Origin: Escherichia phage vB_EcoM_EC001 | Sequence record: MN445185.1 | DNA: 64,000 nucleotides | Strand: one strand, 5' to 3' | In this document: piece after piece, positions 63,088 to 63,970 of the stretch | How the letters are laid out: each line of letters starts with the position of its first letter | Position numbering within the stretch: the first letter of the stretch is position 1 | Notes under the pieces: generated by a model | What the model was told of the DNA's origin: nothing | Seen by the model: only the letters and a program-made list of their open reading frames with translations | The model's database searches: none | Position numbers and translations under genes: made by a program

Positions 63088-63295
63088 TTACTTATCTCCA
63101 TTAACAAATGATAGCAGAAGAACCCTATGTTCAACTACTTGTACTTCGAGGCATATTAACTGCCCCGACTCGTAAATTAGTTGACAATAAACCGGCTTTT
63201 GTGCGAAAAAAGTGGCTAACTGTGCACAAGCGATTCGGGTTATCGTTACAGTTAGGAGGTTTATTGTCACAATATACAGCTCACACGTAATTAAA

Positions 63296-63970
63296 TTAGT
63301 GCGGTGTGCTAGTGTCGTTGCCCGGACCATGGCCAGTATGTACGTGAAGAGTAAAGGTGATGCCGCCGATAACCGATTCGGTAACTGTGAAAGTGCCCTT
63401 ACCTTCACCCTTGCCGTTATAGAGGAAATCTTTACCTACTTCCAGGTTACCGGTAAATAGATTCGTTGGGCATGTGGTCTTCCAGTCTTCAGTCGTCCAT
63501 GCCACGTTTTTCGACGCTGTAGAGTTGCGAGTTTCGCACTTCTCGTTAATCGTTTTTGTCTCGAGATTAATAGAACGTTTAGCATAAATGAAAGCGTCCT
63601 CTTTATTGATATTAATCTTCGACCGGCAGGCGTTTTCAAACCCTAAGTCATCCTCCGGAGAATTGAGGTAGAACTTACGCCCTTCGTCATCCACTAACTG
63701 GCAAAACCCGTCACGGGTATTCAGCTGGAGCAAATACGCGTTTTTCTCACCGTTAGTCATACTGGTACGTAGAGTAATGTGACCATCCATCGGGGAGATA
63801 TTCAGTACGTAGGCGTTAGAGAGGTCATCGGCCATCTGGTTTACTGGGTCAGCAGACCAGGCGTATACCCCATCTTCCAGTCGCTTAACGTTACTGTTGT
63901 TTAAATCTTCCCAGAAGTACATATCGGTTTCACCGATACGCCAGATTCTTACGTAGTCTTCTTTTTTCAC
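63296..63970 (-). CDS. Hypothetical protein (N-terminus may lie beyond the window)
   Basis: 224-aa ORF with protein-like composition. Confidence 0.5.
   Translation of the reverse strand: MKKEDYVRIWRIGETDMYFWEDLNNSNVKRLEDGVYAWSADPVNQMADDLSNAYVLNISPMDGHITLRTSMTNGEKNAYLLQLNTRDGFCQLVDDEGRKFYLNSPEDDLGFENACRSKININKEDAFIYAKRSINLETKTINEKCETRNSTASKNVAWTTEDWKTTCPTNLFTGNLEVGKDFLYNGKGEGKGTFTVTESVIGGITFTLHVHTGHGPGNDTSTPH

Follow-up and report, generated by a model that had tools for sequence, protein, structure and literature searches.

The window analysed here is a 64,000-nucleotide (nt) stretch of the genome of Escherichia phage vB_EcoM_EC001 (record MN445185.1), in which a minus-strand gene for a baseplate assembly protein is followed by a 208-base-pair (bp) spacer and then by a short minus-strand gene of the DUF1471 family. 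The spacer holds a long, perfect inverted repeat. We propose that this repeat closes a small structured RNA with a promoter of its own, an identification that we hold to be probable, if well short of certain. Positions 62600-64000 are 95-99% identical to 33 deposited phage genomes, all of the SPN3US type (Seoulvirus; hosts Salmonella, E. coli and Proteus); judged by its sequence, the source phage is an SPN3US-like, nucleus-forming jumbo phage. Phages of this kind assemble a phage nucleus and encode multisubunit RNA polymerases of both the virion and the non-virion type (PMC7598289, PMC13282480). The counterpart of 62600-64000 in SPN3US itself (NC_027402) is 159786-161184, where the minus strand carries a gene for a 310-amino-acid (aa) baseplate assembly protein and then a 69-aa DUF1471 gene, and the plus strand carries a convergent 420-aa gene. 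From the masses published for gp168 and gp171 we infer the 420-aa gene to be gp171; in the original numbering, the DUF1471 gene would accordingly be gp172 and the baseplate gene gp173. The principal features of the locus in the window are these:

62878-63087, minus strand: DUF1471 (YdgH/BhsA-like) gene, 69 aa (Pfam PF07338, E = 3e-11)
63088-63295: spacer between the DUF1471 and baseplate genes, 208 bp
63152-63180, minus strand: promoter-like motif P2, with TATG at 63155-63152 and a predicted start at G 63152
63182-63269, minus strand: structured RNA element of about 88 nt, a candidate small RNA or leader domain (covariance model R1, 98 bits)
63268-63298, minus strand: promoter-like motif P1 (22.6 bits)
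63296-64000, minus strand: 3' part of the baseplate assembly gene (phiKZ gp164 homologue, by homology), cut by the window end; stop codon at 63296-63298

An earlier description of this region, made from the letters of the DNA alone (the sequence-only reading), had pointed to a distant inverted repeat with flanking direct repeats and an enclosed palindrome, upstream of the DUF1471 gene on the minus strand. All of the strings it described lie where it placed them, and the region is indeed the complete spacer before that gene. The inverted repeat is real and is one base longer than had been noted: the arms TGACAATAAACC (63182-63193) and GGTTTATTGTCA (63258-63269) are complementary at 12 of 12 positions, with 64 nt between them. 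It is also above chance. When the 208-bp spacer was shuffled 1000 times with its dinucleotides preserved, the longest perfect arm had a mean length of 7.0, and an arm of at least 12 bp appeared once (0.1%). The whole 64-kilobase (kb) window holds four distinct perfect inverted repeats of such arm length (loop up to 120), one of which is a terminator. Perfect inverted repeats are found inside coding regions at 19139-19152/19178-19191 (14-bp arms, 25-nt loop) and at 33982-33993/34009-34020 (12-bp arms, 15-nt loop).

That the repeat is a functionless accident of an AT-rich spacer would accord with the direct repeats, which taken alone are at chance level: their common ungapped part is the nine bases TAAATTAGT, at 63173-63181 and 63292-63300. 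This explanation is scarcely credible, given the shuffle probability of about 0.001, an architecture kept across genera, and the conservation of the spacer, whose identity among close relatives (96-99.6%) equals or exceeds that of the flanking 1.4 kb.

Read as minus-strand RNA, the 88-nt stretch 63269-63182 has a minimum free energy of -23.7 kcal/mol (z = -4.7) and folds into helix P1 (the closing helix, 12 bp), helix P2 (the inner one, 8 bp) and hairpin P3 (4 bp). The parts of this predicted fold, and one hairpin beyond it, are as follows:

63258-63269, minus strand: helix P1 5' arm, UGACAAUAAACC, the right arm of the inverted repeat (single-sequence fold, RNAalifold)
63248-63255, minus strand: helix P2 5' arm, CUAACUGU (single-sequence folds)
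63231-63245, minus strand: hairpin P3, CGAU (63245-63242) / AUCG (63234-63231) (RNAalifold, alignment)
63216-63223, minus strand: helix P2 3' arm, ACAGUUAG, with the conserved core directly after it (folds, alignments)
63203-63216, minus strand: conserved core, GCCACUUUUUUCGC, U-rich, the most conserved stretch of the spacer across genera
63199-63229, minus strand: possible extra helix, UUGUGC (63229-63224) / GCACAA (63204-63199) (RNAalifold)
63182-63193, minus strand: helix P1 3' arm, GGUUUAUUGUCA, the left arm of the inverted repeat (alignment, RNAalifold)
63146-63168, minus strand: hairpin UCGGGGCA-GUUAAUA-UGCCUCGA around the TATG of motif P2 (fold)

The 5' arm of helix P1 starts at, or 1 nt before, the start predicted for a transcript from motif P1. 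Because the first arm lies at that start, the arms would pair the 5' end of a minus-strand RNA of about 90 nt with its 3' part. The stem is A/U-rich and is followed by AACUAAUUU, which is not the G+C-rich hairpin and U-run of an intrinsic terminator, and a scan found no intrinsic terminator in 63088-63295. The UUGUGC/GCACAA helix is 97.5% paired, has two pairs with compensatory changes, and is absent from the metagenomic L023-type lineage (L numbers are our labels for individual loci). It crosses helix P2, so that it would be either a pseudoknot or an alternative fold. It also competes with a hairpin formed by the U-run and an A-run, in which a compensatory change is seen in Caitlin (ACUAUUU/AAAUAGU); the competing helices at 63199-63229 may constitute a conformational switch. 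As for the palindrome TGTGCACA, it is present at 63221-63228, but TGTACACG stands in its place in Lh1B, phage 1252, Proteus phage 7 and MET_P1. Since it is not kept even in these close relatives, we take it to be incidental, a mere junction of the UUGUGC arm and the 3' arm of helix P2.

Searches with known families did not identify the element. Against the families of Rfam 15, the window region and 13 related loci gave chance-level matches only (E at least 4 in the window region); the best was U6atac, at 25 bits against a gathering threshold of 33 (E = 0.03). ARAGORN found no tRNA or tmRNA. Two further readings were rejected. A retron non-coding RNA, with the arms as a1/a2 repeats, does not suit neighbours that encode DUF1471, baseplate and structural proteins and no reverse transcriptase domain. 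A coding reading fails because neither the 32-aa TTG-initiated open reading frame (ORF) at 63131-63229 nor the overlap of a 106-aa GVG-start frame is preserved in relatives, which have indels and terminators there.

The direct repeats are most likely the upstream boxes of two tandem promoter-like motifs rather than a repressor site. The sequence-only reading was correct that they exist, but they are short and gapped and do not flank the inverted repeat as such; their significance derives from their membership in a recurrent motif. Several spacers in the window share a layout in which a terminator hairpin and its T-run are followed by TTTACG or TTTACA, 13 nt, TT(A/G)TG and often then AC. The motif as a whole is a T-rich stretch plus TTTACR-N13/14-T(A/G)TG, with the TTTACR box at about -23 to -18 (about -21) from the predicted start and often fused to the T-run of the preceding terminator. 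The pattern TTACR-N13-TTRTG occurs eight times in the window, against 0.7 expected, and seven of these eight occurrences are intergenic and oriented to the next gene. ATTTACG by itself was uninformative as a motif, and became informative once the downstream TRTG was added. With a scoring matrix built from intergenic (non-coding) sites of SPN3US, the 240-kb SPN3US genome gave about 20 strong matches; 19 of the top 20, together with motif P1 itself (24.3 bits), fall in the non-coding 7%. Scores in the window were bimodal, with seven sites at 20.4-27.9 bits, all intergenic and gene-oriented, and the next best at 11.8. These strong copies are:

90-130, 818-858, 2696-2736, 7037-7077 and 16146-16186, plus strand: strong motif copies (matrix scan)
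47102-47062 and 63298-63258, minus strand: strong motif copies (matrix scan)

Motif P1 consists of an A/T-rich stretch over the baseplate stop codon (TAA, 63298-63296), TTACG at 63290-63286, a 13-nt spacer and TTGTG at 63272-63268, and it contains the right-hand direct repeat; its start is predicted at G 63268 (+/-2). The left-hand direct repeat supplies the upstream box of motif P2, CTAATTTACG (63180-63171), with 15 nt from TTACG to TATG. The start tetranucleotides are TGTG for P1 (63271-63268) and TATG for P2 (63155-63152), and members of the family carry one or the other. Tandem promoter-like motifs are also found elsewhere in the window, at 826/873 and 16119/16154. The late promoter of the phiKZ non-virion RNA polymerase is T(-3)ATG(+1) (PMC7598289, PMC7618050), and the middle promoters of phiKZ have a weak AT-rich motif near -24 (PMC7598289). 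Because the end of our motif resembles the late promoter, we place the starts at G63268 and G63152, and we infer that the phage non-virion RNA polymerase uses the motif copies as promoters, with the G of TRTG as the first nucleotide. The TTTAC box could be peculiar to this clade. No sigma-70-like site was found on either strand of 62000-64000; a plus-strand TTGACA there has no plus-strand gene downstream.

The arrangement at this locus extends well beyond the close relatives of SPN3US. Homologues of the baseplate protein, 48-75% identical, are encoded by Erwinia phages from four additional genera and by uncultured contigs, and in all of these relatives the baseplate gene is followed by a spacer of 200-450 bp and, except in L029, by a homologue of the DUF1471 protein of about 69 aa. 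Synteny thus described covers Seoulvirus, Erskinevirus, Machinavirus, Wellingtonvirus, Derbicusvirus and metagenomic lineages. Of the 19 spacers scanned, 16 have an equivalent of motif P1 after the baseplate stop codon (1-14 nt past it, with AC after the predicted start), and the same fraction, 16 of 19, carries the near-identical core GCCACUUUUUUCGC 52-61 nt downstream of that start. This spacing is kept in the five or six genera in which the core occurs, and CG(C/U)UUG precedes the core. At the place of motif P2, TTTACR-N14/15-TATGC is found in Seoulvirus, Erskinevirus, Machinavirus and L033, usually fused to a terminator T-run, and Wellington and L031 have TGTA at that position. In Wellington (L018, 2736-2894), L031 and L033, an extra small ORF (53 aa in Wellington) lies between the baseplate gene and the RNA element, and motif P1 follows this ORF instead of the baseplate gene.

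Most lineages have a canonical intrinsic terminator after the core, and its T-run runs into motif P2. By scan, the terminators of Asesino and Caitlin are at 2836-2861 followed by ATTCTTTTTT and at 2912-2935 followed by CTTTTTCTTT, respectively, and a promoter followed by a terminator within 250 nt is present in pEa29, Asesino, Caitlin, pEa4, Machina, Wellington, L033 and L029. At this place SPAsTU carries a G+C-rich hairpin that no U-run follows, and pEa_SNUABM_29 carries a full terminator. In L029 (IMGVR_UViG_3300011862_000001), the element and terminator (2431-2634) abut the stop codon of a convergent gp171 homologue that ends at about 2634; the RNA element is kept there, and the DUF1471 gene is absent.

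The Derbicusvirus group (Phobos, L035/L036) shares the synteny, but the core is absent, motif P1 is missing or present as a weak variant, and the covariance model described below has no match. In this group (L034-L036, L019) the long spacer has a large terminator hairpin, and an A-rich stretch replaces the U-rich core; the element there may be diverged or different. In phiKZ, only 9 bp follow gp164, the homologue of the baseplate gene. A scan of IMG/VR with the pattern GCTTG-N3-14-GCCACTTTTTTC returned 99 stretches; besides the known relatives, the ten that were inspected were chance matches in unrelated contexts.

What is preserved in the arms of helix P1 among these relatives is pairing. Single-sequence folds of the RNAs of the window, SPAsTU, pEa29 and Asesino always pair the 5' end with a 3' segment before the terminator or motif P2, and the arms of helix P1 differ from phage to phage (GACAAUAAACC/GGUUUAUUGUC in the window, GACAACA/UGUUGUU in SPAsTU, GACAAC/GUUGUC in pEa29 and GCAACAU/AUGUUGC in Asesino). 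In a plain MAFFT alignment of eight sequences, helix P1 was 91.5% paired, and three of its pairs had changed on both sides (AU/GC/GU; CG/UA, four against four; AU/UA). RNAalifold, supplied with no structure, recovered helices P1 and P3. Hairpin P3 is 92.9-95.8% paired, and its fourth pair is U-A in the window, C-G in SPAsTU and pEa29, and G-C in Asesino. Helix P2 shows a U-A, U-G, C-G series across the window, Lh1B-type phages and SPAsTU; its equivalents are CUAAUG/CAUUGG in pEa29 and UAAUGC/GCGUUG in Asesino, with the P2 and P3 registers of these two taken from single-sequence folds.

A covariance model, R1, was built from the eight-sequence MAFFT alignment. Such a model leaves its training sequences un-realigned, so that the helix P2 and P3 counts for pEa29 and Asesino understate their pairing. 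R1 found one copy per genome, and all 21 matches other than a chance-level one in L013 (E = 8.6) lie in the syntenic spacer on the gene strand. In the alignment fitted to the model, 85% of cells are paired, against 26-40% with slid partners, and the covariation score is 0.264, a value reached by none of 500 shuffles (0.137+/-0.015). We assign the structure to the minus strand because of the orientation of both motif copies, the terminators of the relatives, the flanking genes, and changes that yield G-U pairs; the isolated changes that give G-U on the minus strand only are an A-to-G in an arm in phage 1252 and an A-to-G in helix P2 of Lh1B-type phages.

These data bear on two explanations that act at the level of DNA. 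The sequence-only reading had suggested a paired operator. On this view the arms would be half-sites for a phage repressor or activator, such as the helix-turn-helix (HTH) protein encoded at 948-1313, which might loop the 64-bp spacer to control motif P1. In its favour, perfect arms of 12 bp are rare by chance, one of them covers the predicted P1 start, a position typical of operators, and an HTH_3 protein is encoded in the window. Nothing, however, ties the HTH gene to the site, and the half-site occurs only at the two arms, both in the window and in the 240-kb SPN3US genome. Allowing up to two mismatches gives 13 matches against 6.2+/-2.6 expected, an excess that does not clearly stand out from chance, and the extra ones are scattered and have no link to the promoter-like motifs. 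Further, it is complementarity and not arm sequence that is conserved among the window, SPAsTU, pEa29 and Asesino, A-to-G substitutions resulting in G-U pairs are tolerated (phage 1252), and the inner helices, with covariation of their own, have no role in a DNA-site model. An operator is therefore very unlikely. A miniature mobile element, with the arms as terminal inverted repeats and the direct repeats as a target-site duplication, is more doubtful still. It is true that 12-bp repeats stand at the ends of an 88-bp unit and that short, similar direct repeats lie beyond them, but the right direct repeat stands 16 nt off its arm instead of abutting it, the unit is present in a single copy, and its interior rather than its ends is conserved at the orthologous position across genera.

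We therefore return to the small RNA and propose the following scheme. A minus-strand transcription unit would sit between the baseplate and DUF1471 genes, in which the non-virion RNA polymerase would start at G63268 of motif P1 and at G63152 of motif P2. The RNA from the P1 start would fold into the closing helix, inner helix P2 and hairpin P3, which would present or flank the core GCCACUUUUUUCGC. Its paired 5' end could protect it from 5'-end-dependent decay, and the conserved core could be the working surface for a protein or RNA partner. The product would be a stand-alone small RNA of roughly 90-190 nt, as suggested by the terminator that relatives have before motif P2 and by the L029 unit, which has no DUF1471 gene. 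In SPN3US-type phages the terminator hairpin has probably been lost, and transcripts from P1 probably run through P2 into the DUF1471 gene; without a terminator, the RNA of these phages would thus also be a 181-nt structured leader of DUF1471, unless it is released by processing.

This last point is the core of another explanation, namely that the element is purely a cis-acting leader of the DUF1471 gene, which stabilises the mRNA by its paired 5' end or mediates conditional termination or processing (for instance by an RNase III-type cut in the coaxial helix P1+P2 stems) and has no function in trans. Nothing terminates P1 transcripts before the gene in the window lineage, so that the RNA is physically a 181-nt leader there, and the other six strong motif copies in the window are also followed by leaders, of 24-100 nt. 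Most short RNAs of the comparable kind in phiKZ result from premature termination in 5' untranslated regions (UTRs) with partial read-through (10.1101/2023.10.13.562163). The hairpin at 63146-63168 that encloses the start of motif P2 can form only in RNA that has read through from P1, and a single compensatory change (G-C to A-U, in SPAsTU) lends it weak support. Yet in most relatives a strong terminator and a second promoter-like motif separate the RNA from the gene, L029 keeps the RNA without the gene, and the best-conserved part is an internal U-rich core that is not near the ribosome-binding site. We judge a purely cis-acting leader to be rather unlikely. The proposal of a structured 5' leader in the sequence-only reading thus survives in one respect, that the arms appear to act as an RNA helix in a transcript whose predicted start lies at the first arm; as a full account it falls short, since the unit looks separately promoted, is in most relatives separately terminated, and in one relative stands without a DUF1471 gene.

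Several observations count against a discrete, minus-strand small RNA with promoters of its own. Neither the window nor SPN3US has a terminator at the relevant place, which leaves the small RNA without a defined end in this lineage. No transcriptome of the SPN3US group was found in the literature searched; the start sites, promoter activity and RNA ends given here are predictions. Motif P2 scores only 10.1 bits and has a spacer one base longer. The analogy with phiKZ is partial, since motif P1 has TGTG in place of TATG and the late promoters of phiKZ reportedly lack a consensus further upstream (PMC7618050). Few independent lineages lie behind the covariation (about four for helix P1), related sequences without a structure can exceed one control, and the larger alignment was fitted to the structure. 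The helices outside the core vary between genera, and the model reaches distant lineages at E = 0.03-9. As to strand, G-U against A-C combinations number 8 and 10 in the plain MAFFT alignment, which does not discriminate, and 30 and 14 in the fitted alignment, which favours the minus strand modestly; the plus strand also folds well (z = -3.8), and energy does not choose between them. Finally, a search of the phage genome for a complement of the core found only the opposite strand of the element and a single 10-mer, at SPN3US 127145, which is not close to a gene start.

A bolder version of the proposal is that the spacer encodes a family of trans-acting structured RNAs found in several genera of nucleus-forming enterobacterial jumbo phages (Seoulvirus, Erskinevirus, Machinavirus, Wellingtonvirus and uncultured lineages); the core, kept in a pseudoknot or in helices that switch, would be the binding site for a factor of the phage or the host. 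We put this forward tentatively, as possible rather than probable. Were it so, the factor could act in mRNA handling between nucleus and cytoplasm or in the timing of tail and baseplate assembly, and the clade would have a bipartite phage-polymerase promoter (TTTACR at about -21, TRTG at +1), a handle on promoter recognition that is poorly defined.

We found no published description of the RNA element in the literature searched. The non-coding RNAs of jumbo phages are barely explored, and a 2026 review goes no further than to state that phiKZ expresses some (PMC13282480). The boundaries of the candidate described here are clear, its fold can be tested and its core is invariant, and it occurs in several genera, including that of the genetically tractable SPN3US. 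Further, the bipartite motif predicts about 20 start sites in SPN3US and could help to define promoter choice by the non-virion polymerase, which is unresolved even for phiKZ (PMC7618050). For annotation, the element would account for the unusual length of an "empty" spacer that dozens of deposited genomes share.

Other features of the locus and the window deserve brief mention:

63088-63151, minus strand: 5' UTR of the DUF1471 gene, with the Shine-Dalgarno sequence GGAG at 63099-63096
63132-63120 (region 63113-63139), minus strand: conserved hairpin GAAC-AUAGG-GUUC in the DUF1471 5' UTR (sequence comparison, fold)
873-890, 7720-7737, 16119-16136 and 20663-20680, plus strand: AT-rich motif TTCAGATA[TG]AT[AG]TTAY (pattern count)

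The stem of the 5' UTR hairpin is altered in SPAsTU (AGAC/GUCU), with its AUAGG loop unchanged. The phage DUF1471 protein has its domain at residues 16-66 and lacks an N-terminal signal-like segment; bacterial DUF1471 members are secreted. The DUF1471 gene stands beside the baseplate gene in several jumbo-phage genera. Between it and the convergent gp171-like gene lies an 11-bp G+C-rich hairpin (62823-62847); T-runs flank it on each strand, and it probably terminates transcription in both directions. The AT-rich motif occurs four times in the window against 0.01 expected, each time in a spacer ahead of a plus-strand gene; two copies are in tandem with TTTACR-N13-TTRTG, and none lies in the spacer that holds motifs P1 and P2. 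It looks like the early promoter class of phiKZ-like phages, used by the virion RNA polymerase.

Several known systems offer partial parallels to the element. Stem-loops at the 5' terminus, such as that of the ompA leader, stabilise bacterial and phage mRNAs. In the predicted transcript, likewise, a long helix lies at the 5' terminus or no more than 1 nt from it and leaves no single-stranded 5' end, but here the partner of that end is a segment 64 nt away, and the pairing encloses a domain of several helices and a conserved internal core, which is beyond the needs of a stabiliser. Enterobacterial small RNAs of the DapZ and MicL type act via Hfq and a defined seed. They arise from the 3' region of an mRNA under their own internal promoter (reviewed in PMC9438474). 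Similarly, motif P1 overlaps the end of the upstream coding region, and in relatives the RNA shares the terminator of the upstream gene; in contrast, no complementarity between a seed and a target was found here, and the phage presumably transcribes the RNA with its own polymerase.

The late promoters of phiKZ resemble our motif in that the latter ends in T-A/G-T-G, with P2 and many other family members exactly TATG, and lies at short, fixed distances upstream of genes. The motif differs from them in its strong TTTACR box and preceding T-run, and its recognition by the SPN3US enzyme is a prediction.

Close counterparts to the unit as a whole are abundant short RNAs of phiKZ and 201phi2-1, which ONT-cappable-seq traced to promoter-plus-terminator units in 5' UTRs and intergenic regions; examples are P112/T102 and TU237 of phiKZ, and sRNA005 of 201phi2-1 with "sRNAgp182" of phiKZ (10.1101/2023.10.13.562163; PMC11512511). 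The phiKZ sRNAgp182 lies upstream of gp182, whose SPN3US homologue is gp238, and so belongs to a different locus; model R1 had no match in the gp181-182 or gp164 regions of phiKZ, for which 196000-216000 and 165815-171474 were scanned. Those RNAs were observed as transcripts, whereas the SPN3US-type RNA is predicted from sequence and its terminator is missing in the window lineage. The likeness lies in the phages and in the layout: these too are nucleus-forming jumbo phages with RNA polymerases of their own, and their units share with most of the relatives considered here the succession of a promoter, a structured RNA of 70-250 nt, a terminator and a structural-module gene.

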